A DNA stretch of 32,000 nucleotides, taken from an uncultured Erysipelotrichaceae bacterium (GTDB taxonomy: Bacteria; Bacillota_I; Bacilli_A; Erysipelotrichales; Erysipelotrichaceae). Below, one piece after another: positions 1-31,440 of the stretch (within the stretch, counting starts at the first letter, position 1; each line of letters begins with the position of its first letter). The stretch covers positions 1,920,001 through 1,952,000 of the forward strand of contig OW818653.1 of NCBI GenBank assembly GCA_942492995.1, in the 5' to 3' direction. Both the position numbers and the translations under genes were made by a program. The notes beneath the pieces were generated by a model that had not been told where the DNA came from, did no database searches, and saw only the letters and a program-made list of their open reading frames with translations.

Positions 1-1068
1 AATGCTCAATTTGCTTTCTCACATGGTATATCTAGTTCTGAATCAACCGGTAGTTTAGTAAAAACAATGAAGATTGAACATAATTTATTCGCATTACGTG
101 AACGAAATAATCCATTAAGTATTTTTAATGAAAAAGCTGCACAAATACAAACTCAAAAAATATTGAATTCTTTAGGTTTATTTGATTATAAAAATAAATT
201 AATACAGGATTTATCGGTATATGAGCAACAGATCGTATGTCTTGCAAAATCTGTTATTAATAATGCAAAAATTATTGTAGTCAATGATACATCTATGAAT
301 TCTTATGAAGAGAAGATGCAATTGATAAAAAACATAAAAACCTATTCTAAACAAGGAGTTAGTTTCATAATTATCTGTGATGAGAATGATGAGTCTATTT
401 ATCATGCTAATCGTATTCAATATATTTCAGATTCAAACCAAATTTTTGAATTTGAAGAAGTTAAACAATTTCTAGTTTTCTTAGATGATCAGAACTCATC
501 GCTAATGAATAAAAATATCTCACAAAGAAATAGTTCTCTTGATTTTTTAGTTCCAAATAGTATGGATGCTTTTAGATATGATGACGCAATTTTAGATATG
601 TGGTTATCTAAAAGGCAAGCGTATGAAATAACAGGAAATATAGATCGATATTTTATACCAAATTTTTCAATTAAAGAGAATATTTGCTTAGGCATTTATT
701 CTAAACTTACTACTTGGAGTATTTTAAACGAAAATCTTATCGATTTTACTTTTCTTGAAGCCAAACGGTTTGCGAATATTACTAACTCATCAATTAGTAT
801 AGATAAGTTGACTCATTTACAAAAATTACTTTTACTCATTTATCGTGTTTCATTACAAAATCATAAATTTATCATTTTAAACGACATCTTTAATGAAATG
901 GATGATTATGAATGGAGCCATCTTATTAGAACTTTGGAAGATTTGGTTGAAAAAAGAACAGTAATCTATTTTAAAAACTGTAATAGTCATTATTTCCGAA
1001 TAAAGTCATCCAATTTTTATCAACTTGACCGCAAGAAAGCAATAATGATAAAAAAAGACACCTTTTGA
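1..1068 (+). CDS. ABC-transporter ATP-binding-protein homologue with degenerate catalytic motifs in both nucleotide-binding halves; 5' end runs off the window
   Basis: Frame 1 is open from nt 1: NAQFAFSHGISSSESTGSLVKT precedes the listed Met at 67. It aligns by eye with the intact ATPase at 2190-3668. Signature: LSVYEQQIVCLAKSV vs LSTAQQQMVEIAKAI. Walker B: IIVVNDTS vs ILIMDEPS. H-loop: CDENDE vs SHRMDE. In the second half, LTHLQKLLLLIYRV and FIILNDIF correspond to LSGGNQQKVVMAKV and ILIFDEPT. No GxxGxGK(S/T)-like P-loop is visible for the second half. Confidence 0.55.
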   Translation, partial: NAQFAFSHGISSSESTGSLVKTMKIEHNLFALRERNNPLSIFNEKAAQIQTQKILNSLGLFDYKNKLIQDLSVYEQQIVCLAKSVINNAKIIVVNDTSMNSYEEKMQLIKNIKTYSKQGVSFIIICDENDESIYHANRIQYISDSNQIFEFEEVKQFLVFLDDQNSSLMNKNISQRNSSLDFLVPNSMDAFRYDDAILDMWLSKRQAYEITGNIDRYFIPNFSIKENICLGIYSKLTTWSILNENLIDFTFLEAKRFANITNSSISIDKLTHLQKLLLLIYRVSLQNHKFIILNDIFNEMDDYEWSHLIRTLEDLVEKRTVIYFKNCNSHYFRIKSSNFYQLDRKKAIMIKKDTF

Positions 1069-1081
1069 TAGAAATGGTTCA

Positions 1082-1111
1082 TTGTTTGCGATTAATCGAG
1101 AATACTATAAT
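1082..1111 (+). promoter_or_regulatory. Candidate sigma-A promoter for the ABC importer operon
   Basis: Perfect -10 TATAAT at 1106-1111. Weak -35 TTGTTT at 1082-1087 with an 18-nt spacer. AGGAGG RBS at 1135-1140 ahead of the ATG at 1147. Confidence 0.4.
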
Positions 1112-1146
1112 TTGGCCATAAAGTTATCTGACTTTAGGAGGAAAGA

Positions 1147-2115
1147 ATGAAGAATTTACTTAAATTAGTATTTGTTGTTGCTATGAGTATTGGTATGTTG
1201 ACAGCTTGCAGTTCAAATAATGCTCCTGTAGCTGAAGAAGGTAGTGGTATTTTTGGTGTAAGTATTATGACTTTAGGCGCAGAATTCTTTACTGGATTAC
1301 AATCATCCATGGAAAAAGTTTTCGGTGAAGAAGGATTTGAAGTTGTAACGGTTTCCGCTGAATTGGATGTTGCAAAACAGGTTTCAGATATAGAAAATTT
1401 GGTAACTCAAGAAGCAGAAGGTATTCTAGTTGGACCAATGGATCCAAACAGTTTACAAGATGCATGTATCGCAGCACGTGAAGCTGGAACAAAAATTATT
1501 ACATTTGTACCATTCGAAGATCCTGAAGCATACGATGTTTTAATTGGTATTGATGAATCTCAATTGGGCTTAGCTGCAGCTGAATTAGCCTCTGAATGGG
1601 TAGACCAAAAATTTGCAGAAAATGAAAATGCTAGTGTGACAACGATCTTGATCACATATCCTACAAACCCAAATGCTGTATTACGCGATGAAGGGTTAAT
1701 GACAATTGCTAATAATTTAAAAGTTAATCTTGTAAAGAATTACGAACTAGGTGCTGCAGATTCTGTGGATCGCGTTCAAGAGTTTATGGAAATTGCTTTA
1801 GCTGAATATCCTAATCTTAACTTAATCTTAGTACATGATGCATCATTTGCGATTGCTGCAAATGAAGTGTTAGCTAGAACTAGTGGAGTTGATGCTTCAA
1901 AAGTTGGTATCTTTGCGATCGGTGCATCTGAAGCTACTGTAAATGCAGTTGCTGATTCAAAAACCGATGCTTCTATGATCCGTGGTTTAGTTGCTTTAGA
2001 AGACATTGCTGAAAGTACACTAACAGCTTGGAATGCAATCAAAGATGGCACAGTCCCAGCTGATAAATTTATTGCTGGAAGTTATACAAAAATCAACGCA
2101 GAAAGTCTTAAATAA
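1147..2115 (+). CDS. Sugar ABC transporter substrate-binding lipoprotein (type I periplasmic-binding fold, RbsB-like); putative rhamnose-binding by context
   Basis: Lipoprotein signal peptide with lipobox MLTAC (MKNLLKLVFVVAMSIGMLTAC). IFGVSIMTLGAEFFTGLQSSMEK resembles the N-terminal sugar-binding strand/helix of RbsB-type proteins. First gene of an SBP-ATPase-permease operon, with a strong RBS. Confidence 0.8.
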   Translation: MKNLLKLVFVVAMSIGMLTACSSNNAPVAEEGSGIFGVSIMTLGAEFFTGLQSSMEKVFGEEGFEVVTVSAELDVAKQVSDIENLVTQEAEGILVGPMDPNSLQDACIAAREAGTKIITFVPFEDPEAYDVLIGIDESQLGLAAAELASEWVDQKFAENENASVTTILITYPTNPNAVLRDEGLMTIANNLKVNLVKNYELGAADSVDRVQEFMEIALAEYPNLNLILVHDASFAIAANEVLARTSGVDASKVGIFAIGASEATVNAVADSKTDASMIRGLVALEDIAESTLTAWNAIKDGTVPADKFIAGSYTKINAESLK

Positions 2116-2138
2116 ATCAATAAGGTTTATGAAATAAC

Positions 2139-2171
2139 AATTAGTGGTTGAGTTTCGCTCAACCACTAATT
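2139..2171 (+). promoter_or_regulatory. Intercistronic perfect stem-loop (14-bp stem, 5-nt loop) without a U-tract
   Basis: AATTAGTGGTTGAG (2139-2152), loop TTTCG, then CTCAACCACTAATT (2158-2171). It is followed by CAATGATGGAGG, not a T-run. It lies between the binding-protein gene and the ATPase gene. Confidence 0.7.
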
Positions 2172-2189
2172 CAATGATGGAGGTTTAAC

Positions 2190-3668
2190 GTGAAAGTTGT
2201 TTTAGAACTTAAGCATATAACAAAACTATATCCAGGTGTTACAGCCTTAAATGATGTTTCAATTAGTTTCAAATCAGGAGAAGTTCACTCGATCATGGGT
2301 GAAAACGGTGCTGGAAAATCAACAATGATAAAAATTATTTCTGGTGCTATAAATCAGAATGATGGAATTGTTGAAATTGATGGTGAGGAGTTTACAAAAC
2401 TGACTCCATCATTATCGAAAGAAAAAGGGATTGGTGTTATATACCAAGAATTTAATTTAGTACCTTCTCTTAATGTAGCAGAGAATGTATTTCTGGGTGA
2501 TCATATTGGTGGGAAGTTTATTCAAAATAAAAAGTCTATACATGAAAAAACTCAGAAGATTTTCCAAGATTTGAATGTGAACATTGATACATATAGTATG
2601 GTTGGGCAATTATCGACAGCTCAACAACAAATGGTTGAAATTGCTAAAGCGATTTCAAAGGATGTAAAAATCTTAATTATGGACGAACCAAGTGCAGCAA
2701 TATCGATAAATGATGTTGAGAAGTTGTTTTTAATCATCAAAAAGCTTCAACAAAAAGGTGTAACCATAATCTATGTTAGTCATAGAATGGATGAAGTATT
2801 TAGAATATCGGATTCAATTTCAGTACTTAGAGATGGTAAATATATCGCAACCAAGTCAATGAAGGATACAAGTCGAAAAGAACTTGTAAATCTCATGGTA
2901 GGACGTGAACTAACTGAATCATTCCCTCAGCGAAATATTGAAATCGGTGAAGTAGTTCTTAAAGCTGAAAATATCACCGGGAATGGTGTTTCAAATATAA
3001 GTTTAGAACTTAAAAAAGGTGAAATCATCGGTTTAGCAGGATTAATTGGTGCTGGTAGGACAGAGTTTGCTAAATTAGTTATTGGCGAAGCTAAAATACT
3101 TGAAGGTGATCTTTACATAAAAGGTAAAAAAGTTAATATTAAGAATTCTACTCAGGCTATTGATCATGGTCTTGGTTTAATTCCTGAAGATAGAAAAAGA
3201 GAAGGTGTATTTCTTGAATTTCCAATCGACTGGAATATAACACTAATGGGAATAAAGAAATTCAGTAATTTCACAATAATAGATAAGAAGAAAATAGATG
3301 AAGTGAGCGAGAAATATTGTAATACATTGCAAATAAAGACTCCATCATTAAAACAACTAACAAAGAATCTCAGTGGTGGTAATCAGCAGAAAGTTGTTAT
3401 GGCTAAAGTACTAGCATCTAATGCCGATATATTGATTTTTGATGAACCAACTCGAGGTATTGATGTTGGTGCGAAACAAGAAATATATAAATTAATGAAC
3501 AAACTTGTTGAAGATGGAATGTCGATAATTATGATTTCATCAGAGATGGAAGAATTAATCGGTATGAGTGATCGAATTGCCGTTCTACATGAAGGTAGGA
3601 AAACAGGTGATCTATTGAAACAAGAGTTTAGTCAACAAAGAATTCTAGAATTGTCATCAGGACTTTAA
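2190..3668 (+). CDS. Sugar ABC transporter ATP-binding protein, tandem NBDs (RbsA/MglA/CUT2 type)
   Basis: GTG start 6 nt after GGAGG (2179-2183). NBD1 has Walker A GENGAGKST, signature LSTAQQQ and Walker B ILIMDEPS. NBD2 has GLIGAGRTE, LSGGNQQK and ILIFDEPTRGIDVGA. Confidence 0.95.
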   Translation: MKVVLELKHITKLYPGVTALNDVSISFKSGEVHSIMGENGAGKSTMIKIISGAINQNDGIVEIDGEEFTKLTPSLSKEKGIGVIYQEFNLVPSLNVAENVFLGDHIGGKFIQNKKSIHEKTQKIFQDLNVNIDTYSMVGQLSTAQQQMVEIAKAISKDVKILIMDEPSAAISINDVEKLFLIIKKLQQKGVTIIYVSHRMDEVFRISDSISVLRDGKYIATKSMKDTSRKELVNLMVGRELTESFPQRNIEIGEVVLKAENITGNGVSNISLELKKGEIIGLAGLIGAGRTEFAKLVIGEAKILEGDLYIKGKKVNIKNSTQAIDHGLGLIPEDRKREGVFLEFPIDWNITLMGIKKFSNFTIIDKKKIDEVSEKYCNTLQIKTPSLKQLTKNLSGGNQQKVVMAKVLASNADILIFDEPTRGIDVGAKQEIYKLMNKLVEDGMSIIMISSEMEELIGMSDRIAVLHEGRKTGDLLKQEFSQQRILELSSGL

Positions 3669-3679
3669 GGGGCTGAAAA

Positions 3680-4669
3680 ATGAAAAATTTTAAAGTTAAT
3701 TTCGGACAATTGGTTCGTAATAATGTAGTTTGGGTTTTATTGTTTGTCATATCTGTAATATTTTCCTTTAATGCAGAGAATTTCTTTACCATTAGAAATA
3801 TTCTCAATATTCTAAACCAATATGCATACATTATTGTGGCTGCACTTGGTGTTGCTTTAATCATGATGTCAGGGAATATGGACTTATCAGTTGGTTATGC
3901 AATGAGTATAAATGGCGTTATTTGCGCAATACTACTTACTGAATATCATTTACCAGTCTATCTTATAATTATCATAAGTATTATTGTTGGGATGATTCTA
4001 TCAAGTTTTAATGCAATATTGAGTCAAATTCTATTAATTCCTTATATCTTTGTATCGTTTGGAACAATGGTTATTTATCAAGGTATAGCTTATGTATTGT
4101 CAAATTCAAGATCTATCAGCGGTTTCACTGATGCATATAAATATATTGGACAAGGTAGATTATTTGGTACAAATATCTCAGTTGCTTTAGTCATAACTGG
4201 AGTTTTATTAGCTGTCTTTGCCTTTATTATGAATAAAACTTATTTTGGTCGATATGTATTTGCATTAGGTGGAAACAAGGATGCTGCACGTTTAGCAGGT
4301 ATCAATGTTAAAAAAGTGGAATTACTAATTTCGTTATTTGCAGGTGCAATGTATGGCTTAGCAGCAATGATACAATCAACGCGAATTGGAGCGGCAACTG
4401 CATCAACATCAGTAGGCATTGAATTTACAATCATTGTTGGTTTGTTACTTGGTGGTGTTTCAATCCGTGGTGGTGAAGGTAAGATCAATGGCTGTGTTGC
4501 TGGTATTCTCATAATTGCAATTTTGGGTAATGGTATGGCACTAGCTGGCTTGAATATCTACTTCCAGTATGTAGTTAAAGGTTTAATAATGTTAACAACA
4601 ATTGGTATGGATACTTACCAACATAATAAGAAACAATCAAGTAAAAAACTAATAAAAGCAAAAGAGTAA
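3680..4669 (+). CDS. Sugar ABC transporter permease (RbsC/AraH-type)
   Basis: Polytopic hydrophobic protein. ALGGNKDAARLAGINV matches the conserved RbsC-family cytoplasmic loop (E. coli RbsC has ALGGNEAATRLSGINV). AAGGGG RBS upstream. Confidence 0.9.
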   Translation: MKNFKVNFGQLVRNNVVWVLLFVISVIFSFNAENFFTIRNILNILNQYAYIIVAALGVALIMMSGNMDLSVGYAMSINGVICAILLTEYHLPVYLIIIISIIVGMILSSFNAILSQILLIPYIFVSFGTMVIYQGIAYVLSNSRSISGFTDAYKYIGQGRLFGTNISVALVITGVLLAVFAFIMNKTYFGRYVFALGGNKDAARLAGINVKKVELLISLFAGAMYGLAAMIQSTRIGAATASTSVGIEFTIIVGLLLGGVSIRGGEGKINGCVAGILIIAILGNGMALAGLNIYFQYVVKGLIMLTTIGMDTYQHNKKQSSKKLIKAKE

Positions 4670-4692
4670 AAGGCATGATTAAATGCCTTTTT
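4670..4692 (+). terminator. Rho-independent terminator after the ABC importer operon
   Basis: AAGGCAT (4670-4676), 6-nt loop, ATGCCTT (4683-4689), running into TTTTT. Confidence 0.7.
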
Positions 4693-4729
4693 AAAAAGTT
4701 TAACTAAAAAGGTAACGTATGGTGAAAGA

Positions 4730-7054
4730 ATGAAATTCATAGACGGATCATGGATCGTATCAAAATCACATTTCAATCAACAGAAAAATAAAGCAGTTCT
4801 ATGTACTTATAAAAAGGAAATAGAAATTGAGAGAATAAGTTCGAATTACATAATTGCGATTAGTGCAGATTCAAAATATAAGTGTTATATAAACGGTGAA
4901 TTTGTATGTTACGGTCCTCAAAAGGGAAATCAGACAGAATGGTTTTGCGATTCGGTTGATATAACGAAGTATCTAGTACAAGGTACAAACAGTATTGTTA
5001 TTACGGTTCTAAGTTATCCTAATAAACATTTCAATGGTAATCATAGTTTATTTAGAACAAACACACCTGGTTTGTTTGTTGGATCATTGACCAAAGAAGC
5101 GTCTATCTTTGTGACGGATACATCTTGGAAAGCATATAATCATTTAACTGAAATTTACGCGGAAGATGAGCATTTTGCGCCTTTGTTTATATTTGAAAAA
5201 GCTATAGGTTTAGTTGATACACAAATAATCTGGGAAAGTGTTCAAGTATATCACTCAGAAGAACAAGATGAAATCATAAAGCCGAGTTTCCTAAAAGAAA
5301 GAACAATTCCTTTTTTAACCAAAGAACCAAAGAAATTCGTAGAAGTATCAAGTTTAAAAAAGTCGATCTTCAGTGAAAACGAATGGAATGAGTTCCTTCA
5401 TTTTAATAGAAAGATTAATATACCTCCTTATACGAAGGAAATCATTGAAATTCATGCCGGAGAAGAAACTACCGGGTTTCTTAGATTGATACTTAGTAAA
5501 GGCAAAAATACAAAGATAACAATCTTAACATCTGAATGTTATGCTTATCCGCCAATAAAAAAAGAAAATGGACCTCTTTTTCCGGTCAAAAATGATCGTA
5601 CAGATTCAATAAATGGAACATTATTTGGATTTAAAGATTACTATATCGTAGCTGGAATGAATCAAGAAGTGTATGAACCTTTTTGGTTTAGAACGTTTAG
5701 ATATATTCAACTTGAGATTGTAACAGATTCAGAAGCTATGGAACTCATATCGATAGATTATCTTAAAAATCAATATCCACTAAATATACAATCAAGTATC
5801 CAAACATCAGATAACTCATATCATGATATTTGGGATATAAGCGAGAGAACCTTACGTTGTTGCATGCATGAGACATATGAAGATTGTCCATTTTATGAGC
5901 AACTTCAATATATTATGGATTCAAGAAGTCAAATTCTGTATACTTATGCAACTTCTATGGACGATAGACTTGCTAGAAGATGTATGAATGATTTCAAAGT
6001 AGCTAACAAGTTTGAAGGGTTGCTTAATGCGTGTTATCCGAATTTTGAAGAAAACATTATTCCTGGTTTTTCCATCTATTATATTGGGATGTTATATGAT
6101 CATATGATGTATTTTGGGGATGAAGAATTCCTACATGAACATTCAAAAACAGTTCAAAATATACTCGAATTCTACAAGAAACGAATTAACCACAAAGGTT
6201 TAGTTGCTAAAATTGGAGCACCTCTATTCGAAGATCGTTTATGGTCGTTTATTGATTGGACACCAGAATGGAATGAAACAATAGGCTCACCATCCGCAAT
6301 TCGATTTGGACCTATTACAATGGAAAGTTTGCTTTATCTCATGGGTTTACAATATGCTACAAAGATATTTGAGTATTTAGATATGGTTGAAATTTCAAAT
6401 AAATATAGAGAAGATAATCTTTCACTTAAACAAGCCATTAGGAACTATTCAATGGATAAGGATGGGGTTATAACTGACGGACCTGATGTTTCTCTCTATA
6501 GCCAACACTGTCAAGTGTTTGGAATCTTGACTGGAGTTATCAGTCAAGATAAAGGTAGTACATTACTATTAGAAACGTTTAATAATAAAGAAAAATATAC
6601 ACAATGTTCAGTTGCTTCGATGTTTTATCTCTTTAGAGCTTTAGAAATCTGTAAGCTTTATGATCTTACTGACAAACTATGGGATTCTTGGCGAGTCATG
6701 ATTAAAAAGAATCTAACTACTTGTGAAGAGGATAGTGTAAACAGTCGCAGTGATTGTCATGCTTGGGGAGCACTAATGCTCTATGAGCTACCAAGTTCGA
6801 TTTTAGGTGTGAAACCATACGATACTGGGTATAAAACAATCGAAATAAACCCACATTTTTCAACGTTAGAATGGGCTAAAGGGAGTGTTATCACTCCACA
6901 TGGTTTAGTTGAAGTTGACTGGAAGAAAGTCGATATAGATCACTATAAAGTTAATGTGAGATTACCAAAAGATATTGATTTAGTGTTATGTAATGATAAC
7001 GAAAATATTGAGTATCAAGTATATATTGAAGAGAAAAGAGGAGAAGAATTATGA
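4730..7054 (+). CDS. GH78-like alpha-L-rhamnosidase (six-hairpin glycosidase), cytoplasmic
   Basis: The N-terminal segment ISADSKYKCYINGEFVCYGPQKG...ITKYLVQGTNSIVITV resembles the rhamnosidase N-domain pattern. EDCPFYEQLQYIMDSRSQ and SDCHAWGALMLYELPSSILGVKP resemble conserved blocks of the GH78 catalytic (alpha/alpha)6 domain. No signal peptide. Adjacent to rhaBAD. Confidence 0.7.
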   Translation: MKFIDGSWIVSKSHFNQQKNKAVLCTYKKEIEIERISSNYIIAISADSKYKCYINGEFVCYGPQKGNQTEWFCDSVDITKYLVQGTNSIVITVLSYPNKHFNGNHSLFRTNTPGLFVGSLTKEASIFVTDTSWKAYNHLTEIYAEDEHFAPLFIFEKAIGLVDTQIIWESVQVYHSEEQDEIIKPSFLKERTIPFLTKEPKKFVEVSSLKKSIFSENEWNEFLHFNRKINIPPYTKEIIEIHAGEETTGFLRLILSKGKNTKITILTSECYAYPPIKKENGPLFPVKNDRTDSINGTLFGFKDYYIVAGMNQEVYEPFWFRTFRYIQLEIVTDSEAMELISIDYLKNQYPLNIQSSIQTSDNSYHDIWDISERTLRCCMHETYEDCPFYEQLQYIMDSRSQILYTYATSMDDRLARRCMNDFKVANKFEGLLNACYPNFEENIIPGFSIYYIGMLYDHMMYFGDEEFLHEHSKTVQNILEFYKKRINHKGLVAKIGAPLFEDRLWSFIDWTPEWNETIGSPSAIRFGPITMESLLYLMGLQYATKIFEYLDMVEISNKYREDNLSLKQAIRNYSMDKDGVITDGPDVSLYSQHCQVFGILTGVISQDKGSTLLLETFNNKEKYTQCSVASMFYLFRALEICKLYDLTDKLWDSWRVMIKKNLTTCEEDSVNSRSDCHAWGALMLYELPSSILGVKPYDTGYKTIEINPHFSTLEWAKGSVITPHGLVEVDWKKVDIDHYKVNVRLPKDIDLVLCNDNENIEYQVYIEEKRGEEL

Positions 7055-9000
7055 TTCGCAATTTTCCGAATTTAAGTCGTCCTATCCAAATTGGGAACGT
7101 ATATTTTAGAAATCGTATGTTTGGTGCACCGATGGGAGGTACAGATATTACGAAAGATTGTACAATTGGGCTAAGAACGATAGCTTTTTATGAAAATCGA
7201 GCTAAAGGTGGCGTATCTACTGTAACTGTGAGTGAGCTTGTCGTTCACCCTAAAACAGAAGCTTCACATATGTATCATCTTGATTTAGAAACGGTTGATT
7301 CATTAACAAGTTTTACTTACACAGCCGATGCAATTCGTAGACATGGCGCAATAGCTAATGTTGAATTATCGCATTCAGGACAGTTTGCAGGAACATATTC
7401 AATAGATAAAGAAAGAAAAAACTCACTTGTTCAATGGGGTCCAAGCGAAACTGTTCGAGCTGATGGTAAAAAAGTTCATGAACTAACTATTGAGTTAATT
7501 CAAGAAATTGTAAACTCATATGGAGAAAAAGCAGCGCTCGCAAAAAAAACTGGTTTTGAAATGGTCATGATTCATGGTGGACATGGCTGGTTAATTAATC
7601 AGTTTCTATCCCCATTTTTCAATAAAAGAGTTGATCAATATGGCGGATCTCTTGAAAATAGGGTTCGCTTTGCGATTGAAGTTTTGGATTCTGTTAGAAA
7701 AGCAGTTGGACCTGGCTTTCCAATTGAATTTAGGCTTAGTGGTTCTGAATTTTTTGATGGTGGATATGGTCTCGAAGAAGGTATAGAGATCGCTAAATTA
7801 ATTGAAAGTAGAATCGACTTGCTTCATGTGACAGCCGGGAGCTATCAAAAGGTATTTGGACGAACCCATCCTTCAATGTTTTTACCGCACGGACCAAATG
7901 TATATTTAGCAGCTGAAATTAAAAAACATGTTAGTGTTCCTGTCGCAACAGTAGGTGGATTAAATGATCCAGAGAAAATGGAAGAATTAATCGCAACTTC
8001 ACAAGTCGATATTATTGAGATGGCTCGAGCTTTACTGGCTGATCCTGAATTACCTAATAAAGTTATGCGAAATGAAGAAGATAGAATCATATATTGTTTA
8101 AGGTGTTTTGTGTGTATGGCAGAACGTGTTGAAACAGGCACACGTCGTTGCACAGTCAATCCAGTTATTGGAAGAGAATTGGATGGTATGGAAATATTAC
8201 CTGCACGTCAAAGTAAGAACGTGTTAATAGTTGGGGCTGGTCCTGGAGGTCTTCAATCAGCCTATACTGCAGCTCGAAGAGGACATAAAGTTATTTTATG
8301 TGAAAAGAGTGATAAAGTTGGTGGAATTTTACTTGGCGAACAAGTAATTCCATTTAAATATGAAATGTATCGACTCGCATTATCACTTGAAAAACTAGTT
8401 ATATCAGAAGGTGTGGATATTCGATTGAACTGTAATGTAGATAAAGCGTATATCGAAAATGAAAATCCAGATGTTGTTATAGTGGCGGCAGGATCTAGAC
8501 CATTAATCCCGTCGATAAAGGGAATACAGAATGACAATGTAGTCTTAGTAAACGACTACCACAATAGAGTAAAAGACATTAAAGATTCAGTTGTTGTTTT
8601 AGGTGGTGGATTAGCAGGATGTGAGCTAGCAATTCATTTAGCAAATGAAGGGAAAAAAGTGAGGTTGGTTGAGATGCGTTCTGAATTATCTCCAGACGCG
8701 AACATTAGACATCGACCACTATTGATAGATGAAATCAAGAAATCGAATATCAAAGTTTATATGAAGCATAAAGGACTTGAAGTCAGTGAACATGGTGTTT
8801 TATGTATAGACCATGAGGGGAAACAAGTACTTATTGAAGGAGAGACAGTTATCTGTGCTTTAGGTCAAAAGGCAAATAGAGAAATTGTTGATCTACTCAT
8901 TGATTCTGCACCAGTTGTAAAATCAATAGGCGATTGTGTTAAGGTTTCAACGATTACAACAGCTATTTATCAAGGCCATCATGCAGCAATGGATATCTAA
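7051..9000 (+). CDS. FMN/[4Fe-4S]/FAD-dependent oxidoreductase of the Old Yellow Enzyme-FadH/2-enoate reductase family
   Basis: OYE block HGGHGWLINQFLSPFFNKRVDQYGGSLENRVRF. Cys cluster CLRCFVCMAERVETGTRRC (CxxCxxC...C). C-terminal Rossmann motifs VLIVGAGPGGLQSA and VVVLGGGLAGCELA. The start overlaps the rhamnosidase stop (ATGA at 7051-7054), with an AGAGGAG RBS upstream. Confidence 0.85.
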   Translation: MIRNFPNLSRPIQIGNVYFRNRMFGAPMGGTDITKDCTIGLRTIAFYENRAKGGVSTVTVSELVVHPKTEASHMYHLDLETVDSLTSFTYTADAIRRHGAIANVELSHSGQFAGTYSIDKERKNSLVQWGPSETVRADGKKVHELTIELIQEIVNSYGEKAALAKKTGFEMVMIHGGHGWLINQFLSPFFNKRVDQYGGSLENRVRFAIEVLDSVRKAVGPGFPIEFRLSGSEFFDGGYGLEEGIEIAKLIESRIDLLHVTAGSYQKVFGRTHPSMFLPHGPNVYLAAEIKKHVSVPVATVGGLNDPEKMEELIATSQVDIIEMARALLADPELPNKVMRNEEDRIIYCLRCFVCMAERVETGTRRCTVNPVIGRELDGMEILPARQSKNVLIVGAGPGGLQSAYTAARRGHKVILCEKSDKVGGILLGEQVIPFKYEMYRLALSLEKLVISEGVDIRLNCNVDKAYIENENPDVVIVAAGSRPLIPSIKGIQNDNVVLVNDYHNRVKDIKDSVVVLGGGLAGCELAIHLANEGKKVRLVEMRSELSPDANIRHRPLLIDEIKKSNIKVYMKHKGLEVSEHGVLCIDHEGKQVLIEGETVICALGQKANREIVDLLIDSAPVVKSIGDCVKVSTITTAIYQGHHAAMDI

Positions 9001-9027
9001 TGTTAATGGTGGTGAAAGGGTAAAAAT

Positions 9028-10419
9028 ATGAACTATTATCTTGCCGTTGATATCGGAGCTTCAAGTGGTAGATGTATTCTTGGGTATGTTGAAAACGATA
9101 AGCTTATTTTAAAGGAAATCTATCGTTTCGAAAATGTTTTAATTAATAAGAATGATCATCTTTGTTGGGATTTAGAAAGACTCTATAAGGAAATTATCAA
9201 TGGATTGAAAATATGTAAAAAGCTTAATAAGGCTCCGAAATACATTGGAATTGATACATGGGGTGTAGATTTTGTCATAATTGATGAGAATGGAAAAGTA
9301 CTTGGAGATACTGTATCTTATCGTGATCATCGAACGAATGGAATGGATAGAGAGTTAGAGAAGACCATAAATCTAAAACAATTGTATGAAAAAACTGGAA
9401 TACAAAAACAACTCTTTAATTCTATTTATCAGTTAATGTATTTAAAGAAAAGCCACCCTGAAGAGCTTATTAATGCAAAGAATTTTCTAATGATTCCAGA
9501 CTATTTAAACTATTTATTAACAGGCAAAAAGATAAATGAATATACAAATGCTACGACAACTCAGTTGGTAAATACAAAGACATTTACTTGGGATCATGAA
9601 CTTACTGGACTGTTCGAAAACAAAGATATGTTTAATGATATTCTTCTACCACAGACAAATATTGGTGAAGTCAAACCCGAAATTGCTAATGAAATCGGTT
9701 ATCAATGTGAAGTTATTCTTGTTGCGAGTCATGATACAGCATCAGCAGTTATGGCTGTTCCTAACAATGAAGAGGATTCACTGTATATTAGTTCAGGAAC
9801 ATGGTCTCTTATGGGGACAATATTGGACGAGGCAATTACAAGTGAAAATAGCTTTAATCTTAATTTTACTAATTCAGGTGGATATGATAAAAAGTATCTT
9901 TATCTAAAAAATATAATGGGATTATGGCTTATACAAGAAGTGAACCGAGAATATGATGGAAAATATTCATATGCACAGTGGTGTGAGTTAGCAGAAGGAA
10001 GTGATATAGATTCAATCATAGATTGTAGCGATTATCGTTTCTTATCACCAAAAAGCATGATTGATGAAATTAAAGCTTATTGCGCTGAAACGAACCAAGC
10101 TATCCCACAAAATGAGGCTGATCTATCAGCTGTAATCTATAATTCATTAGCGATGAGCTATAAAAAAACAATTGATGAATTTGAGTTTCTTAGTAATAAA
10201 AAGATAAATCAAATTCAAATAGTAGGTGGAGGATCACAAGCTGACTACTTGAATCGGAAAACTGGAGAAGTTACTGGTAAAAAAGTTAGCGCAGGTCCTG
10301 TTGAGGCAACAGCAATTGGTAATTTGATCTGTCAACTATTGGCGACAAAACAAATAAAAGATATAAAACAAGCAAAAGAAATGATTCAAGATTCCTTTGA
10401 AATCATACATTACAATTAA
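9028..10419 (+). CDS. rhaB: Rhamnulokinase (FGGY kinase)
   Basis: The N-terminus MNYYLAVDIGASSGRCILG matches the RhaB phosphate-1 motif (E. coli has VAVDLGASSGRVML). Size (463 aa) and position before rhaA-rhaD both fit. Confidence 0.9.
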   Translation: MNYYLAVDIGASSGRCILGYVENDKLILKEIYRFENVLINKNDHLCWDLERLYKEIINGLKICKKLNKAPKYIGIDTWGVDFVIIDENGKVLGDTVSYRDHRTNGMDRELEKTINLKQLYEKTGIQKQLFNSIYQLMYLKKSHPEELINAKNFLMIPDYLNYLLTGKKINEYTNATTTQLVNTKTFTWDHELTGLFENKDMFNDILLPQTNIGEVKPEIANEIGYQCEVILVASHDTASAVMAVPNNEEDSLYISSGTWSLMGTILDEAITSENSFNLNFTNSGGYDKKYLYLKNIMGLWLIQEVNREYDGKYSYAQWCELAEGSDIDSIIDCSDYRFLSPKSMIDEIKAYCAETNQAIPQNEADLSAVIYNSLAMSYKKTIDEFEFLSNKKINQIQIVGGGSQADYLNRKTGEVTGKKVSAGPVEATAIGNLICQLLATKQIKDIKQAKEMIQDSFEIIHYN

Positions 10420-10430
10420 AGGAGAAAAGT

Positions 10431-11675
10431 ATGAGCAGATATGAAAGTGCAAAAATAATTTACGAAAGACTAGGAATTAATACTGAACAAGCTATAAACA
10501 CTTTGGGACAATTGAGTATTTCAATGCATTGTTGGCAAGGCGATGATGTTAATGGTTTTGAAAATAATAATGGAATGTCAGGAGGGATTCAGGCTACAGG
10601 TAATTATCCAGGTCGTGCTAGAAATCCAGAAGAACTAATGATGGATATCGAAAAAGCACTATCATTAATTCCTGGTAAACATCGGATTAATTTACATGCA
10701 AATTACGCAATTTTTGATGGTGAACCAGTAGATCGCGATAAACTCGAACCTAAACATTTTGCGAAATGGGTTAAGTTCGCAAAGAAAAATGGTTTAGGCC
10801 TTGATTTCAATCCTACTTTCTTTTCTCATCCATTATCTGAATCAGCTACTTTATCAAGTGAAGATGATAAAATTCGTGCATTTTGGATTGAACATGGTAA
10901 AAGATGTATTCAAATAAGCGAGTATTTCGCTAAGGAATTAGGATCCTCGACACTTATGAACATATGGATACCTGATGGGTTTAAGGATATTCCAGCAGAT
11001 CGAAAATCGCCACGTGCTCGACTTAAAGATTCACTCGATCAAATTATCTCAATAAACTATGATAAATCACTTGTTAAGATTGCGGTTGAATCTAAAGTAT
11101 TTGGAATTGGTTTTGAATCATATACGGTAGGTTCACATGAATTTTATATGAACTATGCTGCAAAAAATAATCTTCTATGTCTTTTGGATAATGGACACTA
11201 TCATCCAACAGAAAAAGTTAGTGATAAAATTTCAAGTATGTTGTTATTTTTTGATCAAGTAGCGTTGCATGTAACCCGACCTGTTCGATGGGATAGTGAT
11301 CATGTTGTAATACTTGATGATGAAGTTAAGGAAATCGCAAAAGAAATTATAATTAATGGTTATAAATCAACGATAATAGGTATGGATTTCTTCGATGCTA
11401 GTATCAATCGTATTTCAGCTTGGGTTATTGGAATGCGAAACATGCAAAAAGCTCTTTTAATCGCATTGCTTTCACCACACGAAAAATTAGCTTATTTACA
11501 AAATACAAGACAATTTTCAGAGCTGCTGATGTTACAGGAAGAATTAAAAACTTTGCCATTTGGAGATATATGGGAGGAATTTTGTTCTCGTTGTGGATGT
11601 AATGCATCGTACCAATGGTTTGATGAGGTTAAATCGTATGAAAAAGAAGTTCTATTGAATAGAAATGAGGGATAA
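10431..11675 (+). CDS. rhaA: L-rhamnose isomerase
   Basis: Characteristic HCWQGDDVNGFE motif. 414 aa. AAGGAG RBS. Flanked by rhaB and rhaD. Confidence 0.95.
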   Translation: MSRYESAKIIYERLGINTEQAINTLGQLSISMHCWQGDDVNGFENNNGMSGGIQATGNYPGRARNPEELMMDIEKALSLIPGKHRINLHANYAIFDGEPVDRDKLEPKHFAKWVKFAKKNGLGLDFNPTFFSHPLSESATLSSEDDKIRAFWIEHGKRCIQISEYFAKELGSSTLMNIWIPDGFKDIPADRKSPRARLKDSLDQIISINYDKSLVKIAVESKVFGIGFESYTVGSHEFYMNYAAKNNLLCLLDNGHYHPTEKVSDKISSMLLFFDQVALHVTRPVRWDSDHVVILDDEVKEIAKEIIINGYKSTIIGMDFFDASINRISAWVIGMRNMQKALLIALLSPHEKLAYLQNTRQFSELLMLQEELKTLPFGDIWEEFCSRCGCNASYQWFDEVKSYEKEVLLNRNEG

Positions 11676-11676
11676 C

Positions 11677-12507
11677 ATGACTATTATAAATATAAAGTTT
11701 GTTCAAGATTTCATTCGTTTGGGTATGGATGGATTTTACAAAGGTTGGCATGAGCGTAATGGCGGGAATTTAACTTATCGTATGAGAGATGAAGATGTTT
11801 TATTAGTTAAGCCTTTTCTCATATTTGATCATAAATGGGAATCAATCGGAACAAACGTACCAGGATTAGCTAATGAATACTTTCTTGCCAGCGGTTCAGG
11901 AAAATTCTTCAGGAACTTTGAAATTGATGCAGAAGACTCTATGTGTATTTTACGAATTGATGATAAAGGTGAAAATTACCAAATAGTATGGGGATTATCA
12001 CGTGGTGGGAAACCAACTTCAGAATTGCCATCACACCTTATGAATCATGAAGTAAAAAAAGAAGTAACAAACAATTCTCATCGAGTTATCTATCATGCAC
12101 ATACAACAAATTTGATTGCACTTACGTTTGTTTTGCCACTTGATGGCGTAACATTTACACGCGAACTATGGGAGATGGCAACTGAATGTCCTGTTGTTTT
12201 TCCTCAAGGTGTGGGAATTGTTGATTGGATGGTTCCAGGGGGTCGTGCAATAGCGATAGAAACATCAAAACTTATGAGAAAGCATGATGTTGCAGTTTGG
12301 GCTCATCATGGTACATTCTGTAGCGGACCAAATTTTGATGTTACATTTGGTTTGATGGATACAATCGAAAAATCAGCAGAGATTCTTGTTAAAGTTCTTT
12401 CGATGAGTTCAAAAAAAGCTCAAACGATTCAACCACATAATTTTAGAGAACTCGCAAATAGTTTTAACATTACTTTATCCGAAGATTATCTATTTGATAA
12501 AGATTAA
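11677..12507 (+). CDS. rhaD: Rhamnulose-1-phosphate aldolase (class II aldolase)
   Basis: [35 protein letters not shown] aligns with the E. coli RhaD N-terminus (..[29 protein letters not shown]). I prefer the ATG at 11677 (GAGGGA 4 nt upstream, 1 nt after the rhaA stop) over the track start at 11665, which lies inside rhaA. Confidence 0.9.
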   Translation: [276 protein letters not shown]

Positions 12508-12611
12508 TTTTCCACAAACATAAATTACTCAATTGTTCAAGAAACATTGAGATAAACAGTAAACAAAAGGTATAAAAATCAACTCTCAGGGTTAGTACCA
12601 TTCATTTAATT

Positions 12612-12633
12612 AAGTTCTGAAAAGAACTTTTTT
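12612..12633 (+). terminator. Rho-independent terminator of the rha catabolic operon
   Basis: AAGTTCT (12612-12618), GAAA loop, AGAACTT (12623-12629), followed by TTTT then ATATTTTTT. Confidence 0.75.
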
Positions 12634-12719
12634 ATATTTTTTATCTTCTAAATCCTTATTAATTCATATACAATATTCATTGTGTGAATGATTTAACATC
12701 ATAAAAATAAGGGGAAATA

Positions 12720-13607
12720 ATGAGTCATAATGAAACAGAAGTAAGTTGTAATCATTGTAAGAGGATTATTTATAAGAGTGATATCTTTTGTCCATATTGT
12801 GGAAAAAAGAATGAAGAGATTAAACAGGATAGTCCGATTAAAAAGTGTAATAAATGTGGCGAACCAATGGGTGAGAATGATGTGTTTTGTGGGAATTGTG
12901 GACATAATCAACAAGTAGAAAAAACGATAGAACCTATCCAAGAGAAACCTACTGAGGTTATTACACCTAAACCAGTTGAAGTAAGTTCAAATAATCCAAT
13001 TAAGCCTAAAAAGAAATCGAAATTACCACTTATCATAGGGTTAGTAAGTCTAGTAGTTGTTGTGTTATGTGGGGCTGTATATGTCTATCTTGAAAATGAA
13101 AAGAAAGAAGCAGAAATTGCACGTCTTGAGACGCTCGAACGTGAAGAGAATGAACGAGTTAATCGTGCACTAAATGATCAACTATTATATTGGAACGTTG
13201 AATTTGCGTCTCCTGATAATGATGATACCTATATGACCTTTTATCCTTTTGATGAAAGTGTTAATGATAGTCAAATGGATCAAATGTGCGTTTTAGTTGG
13301 TGTAACAGCGAACAAAAGACCTAGTGGTAAGTTTGTACTAGATGATTCAATTGATGGTGGTTTGTTTAACTTTGAATTATCAGAATTTACCATAAATGAT
13401 TATACTCCACTTAATTCGGCTCAAGAATGTGGGTGGAATTTAGATGATTATCAAGTCGAATACAATGATTCTTTTAGTTTACTAAGTGGTGAATCTAGAT
13501 TAATTTTATTTAAAATGTATTTAACTGATTTATCGCTTGATTCGTATAACTTTATGTATAAATATCTGACAATTACGTCTTTAGATACATCCAGCTTAGT
13601 AGAGTAA
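12720..13607 (+). CDS. Double zinc-ribbon, single-pass membrane protein of unknown function
   Basis: Two CxxC...CxxC ribbons: CNHCKRIIYKSDIFCPYCG and CNKCGEPMGENDVFCGNCG. A Pro/Lys-rich linker follows, then one TM helix (LPLIIGLVSLVVVVLCGAVYVYL) and about 170 aa of C-terminal domain with no motif I recognise. AAGGGG RBS. Confidence 0.6.
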   Translation: MSHNETEVSCNHCKRIIYKSDIFCPYCGKKNEEIKQDSPIKKCNKCGEPMGENDVFCGNCGHNQQVEKTIEPIQEKPTEVITPKPVEVSSNNPIKPKKKSKLPLIIGLVSLVVVVLCGAVYVYLENEKKEAEIARLETLEREENERVNRALNDQLLYWNVEFASPDNDDTYMTFYPFDESVNDSQMDQMCVLVGVTANKRPSGKFVLDDSIDGGLFNFELSEFTINDYTPLNSAQECGWNLDDYQVEYNDSFSLLSGESRLILFKMYLTDLSLDSYNFMYKYLTITSLDTSSLVE

Positions 13608-13630
13608 ATAGTTTGTAAAAACTTGTTTAG

Positions 13631-13659
13631 TTGAGGCGATACGCAATTCAAGTTATAAT
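13631..13659 (+). promoter_or_regulatory. Sigma-A promoter of the nucleotidyltransferase-ADH bicistron
   Basis: -35 TTGAGG (13631-13636), exact 17-nt spacer, -10 TATAAT (13654-13659). GAGGA RBS 7 nt before the ATG at 13681. Confidence 0.65.
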
Positions 13660-13680
13660 AAGAACAGCGAGGAATTAAAA

Positions 13681-14595
13681 ATGAATCATGTGAGTTTAGT
13701 AATACTAGCGGCTGGAATGGGAAGCCGTTATGGTGGTTTAAAGCAGATTGATACAGTAGGTAATAATGGCGAAAGTATCATTGATTTTACGATTTATGAT
13801 GCGATTAAAGCAGGCTTTAAGAAAGTCTATTTAATCATCCGCAAGGAACATGAATCAGCGTTTGAAGAGTCATTGGTTAAACATATTCGTAAGTTTGTGG
13901 AAGTAGAATATGTGTTCCAAGATAAAGATGATCTACCAGAAGGATTTAAGTGTCCTGAGGGTCGTGAGAAACCATGGGGTACAACGCATGCATTACTCGC
14001 ATGTCGTAATCAAGTTAAAGAACCGTTTATGATTTGTAATGCGGATGATTACTATGGTAAAGATGCGTTTACGAGTATGTATGAATATTTAACGCAATCC
14101 ATTGATGATGAAAACTATTCAATGGTTGGATATCGTTTACGTAATACACTTTCCGATTCTGGAACAGTATCACGTGGTGTATGTCAGATTGAAGATGGTA
14201 AGTTAAAAGATGTGGTTGAAATTGCGAAGATTAAACGCGATGGCGATGACATTGTGTATCTTACAAAAGATGAAACATGGGATAAGTTACCGTATGAGAG
14301 TTTAGTATCTATGAACTTCTGGGGATTTACGCCTAAGATTTTCAAACTAGCAGAGAAACAATTTATCCAATTCTTACATCGTGATTTAACATCTAATCCA
14401 CTTAAATGTGAACATGTTATTCCTACGATGATTGGAGAAACATTAAGTCAAAACGTATATACCTTACATGTACTATCTTCTGAGAATACATGGTTTGGGG
14501 TTACATACCAAGAAGATAAACCATTTGTCGTTAATCAATTCAAACAGTTTAAAGCAGATGGTGTATATCCATTTGATCTATGGGAGGTTAAATAA
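13681..14595 (+). CDS. Sugar/alcohol-phosphate nucleotidyltransferase family protein (substrate unknown)
   Basis: N-terminal NTP-binding signature LVILAAGMGSRYGGLKQ, typical of the GT-A-like nucleotidyltransferase fold. 304 aa. Confidence 0.7.
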   Translation: MNHVSLVILAAGMGSRYGGLKQIDTVGNNGESIIDFTIYDAIKAGFKKVYLIIRKEHESAFEESLVKHIRKFVEVEYVFQDKDDLPEGFKCPEGREKPWGTTHALLACRNQVKEPFMICNADDYYGKDAFTSMYEYLTQSIDDENYSMVGYRLRNTLSDSGTVSRGVCQIEDGKLKDVVEIAKIKRDGDDIVYLTKDETWDKLPYESLVSMNFWGFTPKIFKLAEKQFIQFLHRDLTSNPLKCEHVIPTMIGETLSQNVYTLHVLSSENTWFGVTYQEDKPFVVNQFKQFKADGVYPFDLWEVK

Positions 14596-15898: not shown

Positions 15899-15985
15899 TT
15901 ACTTAGGTGAAGTTGTTGCGACAATAATCACAATAACGATGATGATAAATACAAGAGCGATACCGCCAATTAACATAATAGACAT
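15899..15985 (-). CDS. Small hydrophobic ORF 1 (28 aa, predicted single TM helix); not in the supplied track
   Basis: My translation is MSIMLIGGIALVFIIIVIVIIVATTSPK*. A consensus AAGGAG (15997-15992) sits immediately after the TraB-like stop codon (16000-15998) and 6 nt before the ATG at 15985. Confidence 0.45.
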   Translation of the reverse strand: MSIMLIGGIALVFIIIVIVIIVATTSPK

Positions 15986-15997
15986 AGAGTTCTCCTT

Positions 15998-17140: not shown

Positions 17141-17200
17141 AATACACCTTTCTAAGCCTCAGCTTTATCTCGCCATCCGACTATATCTATCACATAATTG

Positions 17201-17209
17201 TGTTATAAT
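17201..17209 (+). promoter_or_regulatory. Extended -10 promoter element upstream of cdaA
   Basis: TGTTATAAT (TGn plus TATAAT at 17204-17209), 24 nt upstream of the cdaA ATG. No good -35 element. GAGGAGG RBS at 17219-17225. Confidence 0.5.
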
Positions 17210-17232
17210 AATTTCGCTGAGGAGGTCTGTTC

Positions 17233-21239: not shown

Positions 21240-21248
21240 GAACAAGAT

Positions 21249-21905: not shown

Positions 21906-21907
21906 AA

Positions 21908-28854: not shown

Positions 28855-28861
28855 GGCTGAT

Positions 28862-31253: not shown

Positions 31254-31346
31254 GGGGAAGTACTCAAGTGGCTGAAGAGGTGCCCCTGCTAAGGGTATAG
31301 GTCGGGTCAAACTGGCGCGAGGGTTCAAATCCCTCCTTCCCCGCCA
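31254..31346 (+). tRNA. tRNA-Ser (anticodon GCU), class II with long variable arm, CCA encoded
   Basis: Acceptor GGGGAAG/CTTCCCC. Anticodon stem-loop TGCCC-CTGCTAA-GGGTA. T-arm GAGGG-TTCAAAT-CCCTC. 93 nt. Confidence 0.95.
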
Positions 31347-31363
31347 AAAAAACAAAAGTGAAT

Positions 31364-31439
31364 GGTCCAGTGGTGTAGTGGTTAACATGCCTCCCTGTCA
31401 CGGAGGAGATCGCGGGTTCGAGTCCCGTCTGGACCGCCA
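31364..31439 (+). tRNA. tRNA-Asp (anticodon GUC), CCA encoded
   Basis: Acceptor GGTCCAG/CTGGACC. Anticodon stem-loop CCTCC-CTGTCAC-GGAGG. T-loop TTCGAGT. 76 nt. Confidence 0.95.
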
Positions 31440-31440
31440 T

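Follow-up and report, generated by a model that had tools for sequence, protein, structure and literature searches.

The 32,000-nucleotide stretch of Erysipelotrichaceae DNA analysed here (the window) carries a rhamnose or rhamnoside utilisation locus of an uncultured, Erysipelotrichaceae-like Firmicute of gut or sediment type, comprising a CUT2-type importer, a cytoplasmic GH78 protein, RhaB, RhaA and RhaD. Between the GH78 gene and rhaB lies a gene for an iron-sulphur (Fe-S) flavoenzyme of the FadH/2-enoate-reductase superfamily, referred to below as the reductase, whose origin and possible role are our subject. Positions 1–12,640 form a single array of genes on the same (+) strand, with the following features.

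1..1068, + strand: 3′ part of abcX, a degenerate ABC-ATPase-like gene of 428 amino acids (aa), cut by the window start
1147..2115, + strand: sugar ABC substrate-binding protein, CUT2 type (Peripla_BP_4, 104.7 bits)
2190..3668, + strand: sugar ABC ATPase with two ABC domains (ABC_tran, 174.6 bits in two stretches)
3680..4669, + strand: sugar ABC permease (BPD_transp_2, 111.3 bits)
4668..4691, + strand: stem-loop 3′ of the permease gene, a nine-pair hairpin in both minimum-free-energy and centroid folds
4730..7054, + strand: GH78-family alpha-L-rhamnosidase-related protein, cytoplasmic, 774 aa (PF17389 and PF17390 above cut-off)
7051..7054, + strand: ATGA start/stop overlap of the GH78 and reductase genes
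7051..9000, + strand: Fe-S flavoenzyme of the FadH/2-enoate-reductase superfamily, 649 aa (Pfam and NCBIfam)
9028..10419, + strand: rhamnulokinase RhaB (TIGR02627, 553.8 bits, cut-off 527.95)
10431..11675, + strand: L-rhamnose isomerase RhaA (NF002203, 652.9 bits, cut-off 572; Pfam RhaA, 641.5 bits)
11665..12507, + strand: rhamnulose-1-phosphate aldolase RhaD (NF002963, 309.4 bits, cut-off 170)
12612..12640, + strand: terminator-like hairpin and U-run 3′ of rhaD

The initial annotation had reported open reading frames at 4730–7054 and 7051–9000 joined by an ATGA overlap, with the reductase between the glycosidase and rhaBAD. Both frames and the overlap were present (7049–7054 reads TTATGA, with ATG at 7051–7053 and TGA at 7052–7054), and the gene order recurred in the independent assemblies L085 and L086, which belong to the window's own species (98–100% identity), and partly in L083, from a sister species whose reductase is 87% identical. 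L085 and L086 share the overlap unchanged, and the frame upstream of the L083 reductase stops 5 nt before the ATG. The window species is represented in samples SRR29063592 and SRR29063594 and in JGI 3300021174 and 3300021176. Gene spacings are −4 nt (GH78/reductase), +27 nt (reductase/rhaB), +11 nt (rhaB/rhaA) and −11 nt (rhaA/rhaD). A four-base start/stop overlap is ordinary operon packing and unremarkable alone. The tight spacing, the overlap and the hairpins following the permease and rhaD genes therefore make the GH78-reductase-rhaBAD segment look like one transcription unit.

The hairpin 3′ of rhaD, seen in a fold of positions 12500–12640, consists of the stem-loop AAGUUCU-GAAA-AGAACUU followed by UUUUUAUAUUUU, and is the probable end of the transcription unit. 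A consensus terminator scan gave nothing useful on the + strand inside the operon, where folding revealed AT-rich hairpins; the rhaD hairpin was missed by the scan because its stem is AT-rich. The permease hairpin was listed by the same scan on the minus strand. It has an equivalent, GAGGCAUA...UAUGCCUC, in the two closest syntenic relatives of the window, L081 (~9948–9971), an Erysipelotrichaceae metagenome-assembled genome (MAG), and L082 (~9946–9971), a Logan contig, and is kept in sequence and position in three genomes whose flanking proteins are merely 60–90% identical. Lying where the transporter genes give way to GH78-reductase-rhaBAD, it could act as an attenuator of low strength or as a hairpin that stabilises the mRNA, and may set the ratio of transporter to enzyme transcript.

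The 774-aa product had been called a rhamnosidase, and the sequence evidence favours that assignment. It matched Bac_rhamnosid6H (PF17389; 72.7 bits, cut-off 24.5) and Bac_rhamnosid_C (PF17390; 43 bits, cut-off 22.1), and aligned over residues 314–753 with Bacillus RhaB (PDB 2okx; E 1e-43). In the phmmer alignment the catalytic acidic residues of that protein, D567, E572, D579 and E841, all align to identical residues. Among accessory domains, PF05592 reached 20.4 bits against a cut-off of 22.2 and PF08531 was undetected in the 774-aa protein; some homologs at 46–48% identity have PF08531. Nothing resembling a signal peptide was seen at the N terminus. Identity was 99% to P0121, 61% to the L081 protein and 46–51% to a large family to which NCBIfam gives the name 'alpha-L-rhamnosidase-related'. 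The three rha genes each pass their NCBIfam equivalog cut-offs, and the linkage of GH78 to rhaBAD is common to the window, L081 and L082. The initial annotation had pointed out that canonical rhamnose catabolism has no step for an ene-reductase, and this was upheld.

The reductase matched Oxidored_FMN over residues 9–343 (205.8 bits) and Pyr_redox_2 over residues 390–613 (99.9 bits). It contains a four-cysteine [4Fe-4S] motif, C349-x2-C352-x2-C355-x11-C367, and two GxGxxG-type Rossmann motifs (VGAGPGG at 394–400 and VLGGGLAG at 516–523). These Pfam matches and residue positions bear out the Old Yellow Enzyme (OYE) type FMN barrel, the CxxCxxC...C motif and the paired Rossmann motifs that had been proposed. 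The closest solved structures were 2-naphthoyl-CoA reductase (NCR; E 2e-86) and FadH (E 1e-68). The same four cysteines and the sequence H175-x-x-H178-G-W180 were invariant in 159 aligned sequences of the clade to which the reductase belongs. Trp180 (window positions 7588–7590) sits at the position of the tyrosine proton donor (OYE1 Y196, FadH Y166), and is present in 159/159 clade sequences; NCR, FadH and four clostridial enoate reductases all have tyrosine there. Other 2-enoate reductase clusters also deviate at the catalytic tyrosine position, in a similarity-network study that does not treat this clade (PMC11759058).

The initial annotation had also placed the reductase in one family with 2-enoate and cinnamate reductases and with BaiCD/BaiH. 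Kinship at the level of the superfamily was confirmed, but the relationship is not close. Identity to FldZ of Clostridium sporogenes was 33%, measured against a sequence machine-read from a paper supplement that may hold a few errors. The HxxHEGY motif and the close kinship that mark a classical clostridial 2-enoate reductase (Enr/FldZ) were both absent from the reductase. NCBIfam scores were 401 bits for BaiCD (cut-off 825), 402 for the long bilirubin reductase BilR (cut-off 750) and 415 for mycofactocin OYE-2 (cut-off 793). As these lie far under the curated cut-offs, the reductase is a member of none of the three.

Homologs 60–75% identical to the reductase, nearly all of 648–651 aa, occur across phyla, in Lachnospiraceae, Erysipelotrichaceae, Coprobacillaceae, Clostridium, Clostridioides difficile, Acetobacterium, Paenibacillus, Fusobacteriaceae, Vibrio, Tolumonas, Klebsiella, Rahnella and Erwinia. 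One scan of genome contigs and one of metagenome contigs yielded 160 loci, 157 of which have a called reductase, and all window proteins were compared with the 160 loci by tblastn. At none of these loci did GH78 and rhaBAD adjoin the reductase, and no rha genes were found near it. The sole homolog of the window's GH78 protein in this comparison was in locus L147 (44% identity), 4.4 kb off and on the opposite strand. Of the 157 loci, 56 had a divergent gene for a PadR-family regulator no more than three genes from the reductase, and 50 had a major facilitator superfamily (MFS) transporter gene immediately upstream. This partner MFS scored 419 bits against the SfMCT L-lactate/monocarboxylate transporter model (cut-off 320). 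The cassette of PadR, monocarboxylate-type MFS and reductase is thus the dominant context. The clade is an uncharacterised, very conserved, cross-phylum group with a non-canonical active-site residue.

The closest syntenic relatives retain an arrangement without the reductase. In L081 and L082 the order is ROK (− strand), Abhydrolase_3/BD-FAE esterase, response regulator of AraC type, histidine kinase, abcX, ABC transporter, GH78, rhaB, rhaA, rhaD, and GH78 is separated from rhaB by 1–3 nt with no reductase gene between them. The MAG represented by L081 also contains locus L002, in which an ortholog of the reductase (75% identity) lies ~18 kb upstream of GH78. There it is part of the cassette PadR(−)-MFS-reductase-metallo-beta-lactamase-ROK(−), the end of which is ~5.5 kb before the first transporter gene. 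L086 has the same upstream synteny as L081 and L082 (ROK, esterase, response regulator, kinase), but its GH78 gene overlaps the reductase gene; L085 again has the order GH78-reductase-rhaB. L083 has reductase-rhaB-rhaA, and the 24 nt 5′ of its reductase are homologous to the 3′ end of the window's GH78 gene. The arrangement is limited to L085/L086 and L083.

In a neighbour-joining tree the window clade was nested within the PadR-MFS-linked clade (bootstrap 93) and was weakly placed as sister to the L002 ortholog (bootstrap 23). The simplest reading of these sequence comparisons is that, in an ancestor shared by L083 and the window species, the reductase gene moved over a short range to a place between GH78 and rhaB. 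Conservation of the GH78-reductase adjacency across genomes, which the initial annotation had raised as a check, was not found: it is absent from the 160 loci and from the nearest syntenic relatives, and is lineage-specific. What we describe is best regarded as a lineage-specific rewiring, in which a known kind of enzyme entered a known kind of operon. L086, which was retrieved via the substrate-binding protein, ends inside the ROK gene. A homology search with this ROK fragment found the full ROK protein on a 1,178-bp contig alone, and the 78 nt beyond ROK showed no likeness to the 3′ end of the metallo-beta-lactamase gene, the stretch being too short to interpret. A 68% ROK homolog, P0243, lies in an unrelated context and was set aside.

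Between the window and L083, at dS ~1, the reductase had a ratio of non-synonymous to synonymous change (dN/dS) of 0.073 (rhaB, 0.068; rhaA, 0.063), pointing to strong purifying selection on the reductase. Its GC content at third codon positions (0.212) equals that of the neighbouring genes. Because dN/dS is ~0.07 and the third-position GC content is neighbour-like, the reductase is an old, maintained resident of the operon; the low dN/dS also speaks against its being a recent duplicate in decay, with an intact PadR-MFS-reductase cassette elsewhere in the genome. At sites at least 90% conserved elsewhere, the window lineage has six substitutions of its own, all of them conservative and no more than in single control lineages. 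With so few changes, the idea of an enzyme specialised for the rha operon did not hold; presumably its chemistry is that of the whole clade, and it is regulation and neighbours that changed. In relative-rate tests the window lineage seemed to have 1.5 to 2.7 times more unique substitutions than L002 or L053, spread over variable sites. Neofunctionalisation was rejected as an explanation of these rates, since conserved sites are almost untouched, some outgroups were non-significant and a genome-wide rate effect is possible.

Members of the reductase clade are linked to deglycosylation genes elsewhere. The Lachnospiraceae loci L057 and L063 both run from AraC through a GPH transporter, a protein of 916 aa, a metallo-beta-lactamase-fold (MBL) hydrolase and a ROK kinase to GH1 and the reductase, with an ATGA overlap at the GH1/reductase junction in L057 and one shared base (TAATG) in L063. 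L134 and L135 have reductase-PTS EII-GH1 (PTS, phosphotransferase system), and in C. difficile a bgl-type PTS-GH1 unit adjoins PadR-MFS-reductase. In the metagenome contig L147 a GH5-like gene, a carboxylesterase gene, the reductase gene and a GPH transporter gene follow one another, with a divergent AraC-GH78 pair, and in L051 and L052 an esterase gene is immediately 5′ of the reductase. Paenibacillus L018 reads PadR(−)-MFS-reductase-AraC(−)-GPH, followed by a canonical GH78 (355 bits) and then an MBL hydrolase (LactamaseB). L154 reads RpiR-GH1-PTS EIIBCA-canonical GH78-YdjC, followed by a fusion of an MBL hydrolase with the reductase. A functional link between the clade and glycoside utilisation is plausible because these independent arrays bring together GH1, GH78, esterases and MBL hydrolases.

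Several observations accompany these loci. The L154 fusion (9158–11941) is a 927-aa in-frame product, the hydrolase part of which is 42% identical to the product of the gene 3′ of the L002 reductase; its linker reads ...NKEKVYKKQVLFERKYPNL..., and the initiator methionine of the reductase is replaced by phenylalanine. Found on one metagenome contig, it provides a Rosetta-stone hint that hydrolase and reductase act together. The conserved protein of 913–916 aa encoded between the GPH transporter and MBL hydrolase genes (L057:3936–6686 and L063:3955–6696) had no significant Pfam or PDB match. Its sub-threshold matches to GH106 alpha-L-rhamnosidase (E 9e-4 and 9e-5) give a hint that it may be a very divergent rhamnosidase; it was rejected as a relative of the GH78 protein, to which it shows no similarity.

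In L081 the segment 3′ of rhaD (15931–21992) contains genes for HTH_5, another Fe-S flavoenzyme of 638 aa (32% identity to that of the window), CMD, MatE(−), aldo-keto reductase (AKR) and Cyclophil_like2. A CMD-Cyclophil_like2-AKR trio adjoins a GH78 homolog in L171 (12553–15728), from an unrelated 5-Mb MAG. Abhydrolase_3/BD-FAE esterase genes (L086:942–1826; L171:1–649) are linked to kinase, regulator, ABC transporter and GH78 genes in the window species and in this distant MAG, which has a CUT1 transporter in place of CUT2. The substrates of such esterase-linked loci may be acylated rhamnosides or acetylated pectic fragments.

At the 5′ end of the array, abcX has no in-frame stop within window positions 1–66. 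Its full length is represented in L086 (4265–5551), where the match to ABC_tran is weak and degenerate (36 bits). Orthologs are present in L081 and L082, and the full locus order is a response regulator (AraC)/histidine kinase pair followed by abcX. As an addition to the sensor/transporter set it is unusual, and in L081, L082 and the window species alike it is conserved at the place between histidine kinase and sugar-binding protein. Matches of the substrate-binding protein to the RhaS, RbsB and ChvE models were weak and all far under cut-off, and the ATPase scored 511–537 bits against xylose, arabinose and ribose ATPase models, under their cut-offs.

Three genes lie 3′ of the rha terminator (12720–15773); their products are a protein of 295 aa with a double zinc ribbon, a 304-aa nucleotidyltransferase-like protein and an Fe-dependent alcohol dehydrogenase. 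The last of these (14595–15773) was considered as FucO, lactaldehyde reductase, and rejected: it scored 120 bits against a cut-off of 523 for FucO and 263 bits with a generic alcohol dehydrogenase model, and is not counted in the rhamnose pathway. No FucO equivalog was found in the window. Two tandem MgtE-type magnesium transporter paralogs of 451 and 450 aa lie at 27499–30214, with no M-box riboswitch near them at Rfam gathering thresholds. Three tandem tRNA genes near the window end (31254–31511) are the sole Rfam matches in the window.

We favour, at slightly better than even confidence, the view that a widespread reductase was relocated into the rha operon, where it reduces a plant-derived unsaturated acid or aglycone. 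The ancestral gene would have belonged to a PadR-regulated cassette with a monocarboxylate-type MFS. After relocation it would be co-transcribed with GH78 and rhaBAD, and would no longer be controlled by PadR or fed by its own transporter. Electrons would pass from NAD(P)H through FAD and the [4Fe-4S] cluster to FMN, and the enzyme would reduce an activated C=C bond in an unsaturated, probably aromatic, carboxylic acid of plant origin or in a similar aglycone, the saturated product being an electron sink or a detoxified form. Placement in the rha operon would make expression of the reductase coincide with growth on rhamnose-bearing plant material. What the sequences show are the gene identities, the relocation with its narrow distribution, purifying selection, the conserved PadR/MFS context and the recurring glycosidase, esterase and MBL-hydrolase contexts of the clade; substrate class, catalytic direction, co-transcription and metabolic coupling to the rhamnosidase are all things that we infer.

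PadR-family regulators include phenolic-acid sensors (PMC10295242). Neighbouring genes for BD-FAE and carboxylesterases hint that an acid is set free from an ester; taken together with PadR and the monocarboxylate MFS, they make an alpha,beta-unsaturated, probably aromatic, monocarboxylic acid of hydroxycinnamate type a likelier substrate than a flavonoid aglycone. The initial annotation had proposed a two-step module, in which a rhamnosylated plant phenolic or flavonoid is deglycosylated and its aglycone then reduced. The sequence 'deglycosylate, then reduce phenolic' gains partial support, because genes of GH1, GH78, esterases and glycoside transporters have independently become neighbours of clade members; a flavonoid aglycone became improbable, given the PadR/monocarboxylate MFS context and the lack of CHI, Phy and FLR genes.

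Several points weigh against the proposed role. The clade has no characterised enzyme, and the substrate is deduced from gene neighbours alone. A glycosidase or esterase was found within 10 kb in only ~12% of scanned loci. Near GH78 homologs, the Abhydrolase_3/BD-FAE enzymes could simply remove acetyl groups from pectic oligosaccharides. The importer is of CUT2 type, which usually carries monosaccharides, and this leaves in doubt what rhamnoside would enter the cytoplasm for GH78 to cleave. In the sister lineage the same rha operon operates with no reductase gene in it. Finally, Trp180 replaces the family's tyrosine proton donor, so that even the reaction type and mechanism of the clade are not guaranteed.

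A different account, which we consider unlikely, treats the reductase as a neutral hitch-hiker that was brought to a convenient promoter by a local rearrangement, has no metabolic tie to rhamnosides and does what its PadR-MFS-linked orthologs do. The restriction of the adjacency to one narrow lineage, shared by none of the 160 loci, fits this account, as do the absence of adaptive remodelling of the reductase and a sister operon that works without it. A short-range shuffle would suffice, because the ancestral cassette is ~18 kb off in the sister genomes. It is harder to reconcile with an arrangement kept to dS ~1 at a dN/dS of 0.07 and with spacings of −4 and +27 nt, with the independent placement of clade members, in five or more further lineages, beside genes of GH1, GH78, esterases and glycoside transporters in arrays that resemble operons (in one case as a fusion to an MBL hydrolase), and with the different Fe-S flavoenzyme paralog 3′ of rhaD in the sister MAG. 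The reductase might instead be a redox valve while rhamnose is fermented and have nothing to do with phenolics: as a flavoenzyme of general type it would oxidise NADH or reduce electrophiles (quinones, enals or oxygen), and so balance reductant or detoxify by-products. Some sources name homologs 'NADH oxidase', PadR-MFS pairs frequently have a role in drug or toxin efflux, and anaerobic rhamnose use is redox-sensitive via lactaldehyde and 1,2-propanediol. However, rha genes are absent near the reductase at all 160 loci, the partner MFS is of the lactate/monocarboxylate and not the drug-efflux family, 60–75% identity across phyla suggests one specific conserved substrate, and the linkage to glycosidases and esterases is left unexplained. 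We therefore regard a redox valve as improbable.

There is similarly only a slim chance, in our estimate, that the reductase is specific for flavonoids, acting like Fcr/ERED of Eubacterium ramulus or FLR on an aglycone or chalcone released from rhamnosides of the quercitrin, rutin or naringin type. It shares a superfamily with Fcr/ERED (PMC11572103, PMC8398226), homologs of the GH78 protein include lactobacillus-type proteins with sugar transporters, and the GH1 and GH78 genes beside the clade member in L154 would fit rutinoside-type glycosides. Against this, in characterised degraders the Fcr gene is grouped with those for FLR and phloretin hydrolase (PMC11868195); neither the annotated open reading frames of the window nor the surveyed loci include CHI-, Phy- or FLR-like genes. 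The standard partners of the clade, PadR and a monocarboxylate-type MFS, point to free acids, and even the aromatic enoate reductase FldZ is only distantly related, at the 33% identity given above.

Beyond the preferred reading of a relocated plant-acid or aglycone reductase, we raise a wider proposal tentatively, as possible and on balance doubtful. The tryptophan-containing clade of ~649 aa would be dedicated to reducing phenolic aglycones or hydroxycinnamates within an undescribed, widespread anaerobic pathway for plant phenolic glycosides. Such a pathway would be modular (rhamnosidase and/or beta-glucosidase, glycoside transporter, esterase, MBL-fold hydrolase) and spread over several phyla, and the window would be its most extreme wiring, in which sugar catabolism and aglycone reduction are induced together. 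Anaerobes of gut, rumen and sediment turn dietary and plant phenolic glycosides into phenylpropionates that are absorbed and bioactive. To our knowledge, the reductases responsible have been characterised only for HcrB/Par1 of lactobacilli, FldZ, Fcr and FLR, and most taxa have no known one. The value of the locus lies less in a single adjacency than in an uncharacterised clade whose contexts converge on plant phenolic glycoconjugates. If the proposal is true, a widely distributed enzyme is added to maps of polyphenol metabolism, together with an example of operon rewiring that couples sugar release to aglycone disposal; if the phenolic reading is false, the window is a rhamnose operon with a passenger gene.

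The initial annotation knew of no described operon with this wiring. Our search of the full-text literature agreed, finding neither a GH78/Fe-S flavoenzyme operon nor a characterised member of the clade; its coverage was incomplete, so that this absence is no proof of novelty. In general terms, Fe-S flavoenzymes in saccharide-type clusters are already catalogued. Enzymes in which an Oxidored_FMN domain is combined with one of Pyr_redox_2 type occur in at least 849 gene-cluster families of gut Clostridia, 80 of which have a predicted link to saccharides, and an MFS transporter is part of most (Pascal Andreu, Fischbach and Medema 2020, PMC7371122). That catalogue works at the level of domains: it does not mention rhamnosidase, PadR or the rha operon, does not single out the clade or its tryptophan substitution, and assigns no substrate.

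Among individual enzymes, the clostridial 2-enoate reductases (Enr; FldZ, EC 1.3.1.31) resemble the reductase in their FMN barrel, four-cysteine [4Fe-4S] cluster and FAD/NADH domains, and FldZ reduces cinnamate and p-coumarate, the substrate class deduced here (PMC5882074). The active-site motif is H-G-G-H-G-W in the window reductase and H-A-V-H-E-G-Y in FldZ, with tryptophan for tyrosine and one residue fewer, and the lengths are 649 and 665 aa. FldZ serves amino-acid (Stickland) metabolism, whereas the clade is found in sugar or PadR loci. FadH and NCR share domain order and the cysteine motif with the reductase, but they act on CoA thioesters and retain the catalytic tyrosine, and the clade has no accompanying CoA-ligase or transferase genes. 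BaiCD/BaiH, BilR and mycofactocin OYE-2 belong to the same superfamily and their NCBIfam models align over the full length, at 401–415 bits against cut-offs of 750–825.

The Fcr/ERED of E. ramulus (with CHI and phloretin hydrolase) and the FLR-Fcr-Phy system of C. butyricum involve the same superfamily and act on a plant phenolic after deglycosylation. Fcr/ERED is, in addition, a cytoplasmic, NADH-dependent, oxygen-sensitive enzyme of an anaerobe. It clusters with FLR, CHI or Phy (PMC11868195, PMC11572103), whereas PadR, an MFS of monocarboxylate type, an MBL hydrolase and glycosidases accompany the clade. A parallel in gene context is offered by PadR-PadC, HcrAB and Par1 of lactobacilli, where a PadR-family regulator stands beside an enzyme that removes a hydroxycinnamate, as proposed for the clade. 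Neither HcrB nor Par1 is described as an Fe-S 2-enoate reductase; the descriptions given are heterodimeric or hcrB-like. In lactobacilli, the reduction of hydroxycinnamates to phenylpropionates serves as detoxification or as an electron sink (PMC10295242, PMC9876838).

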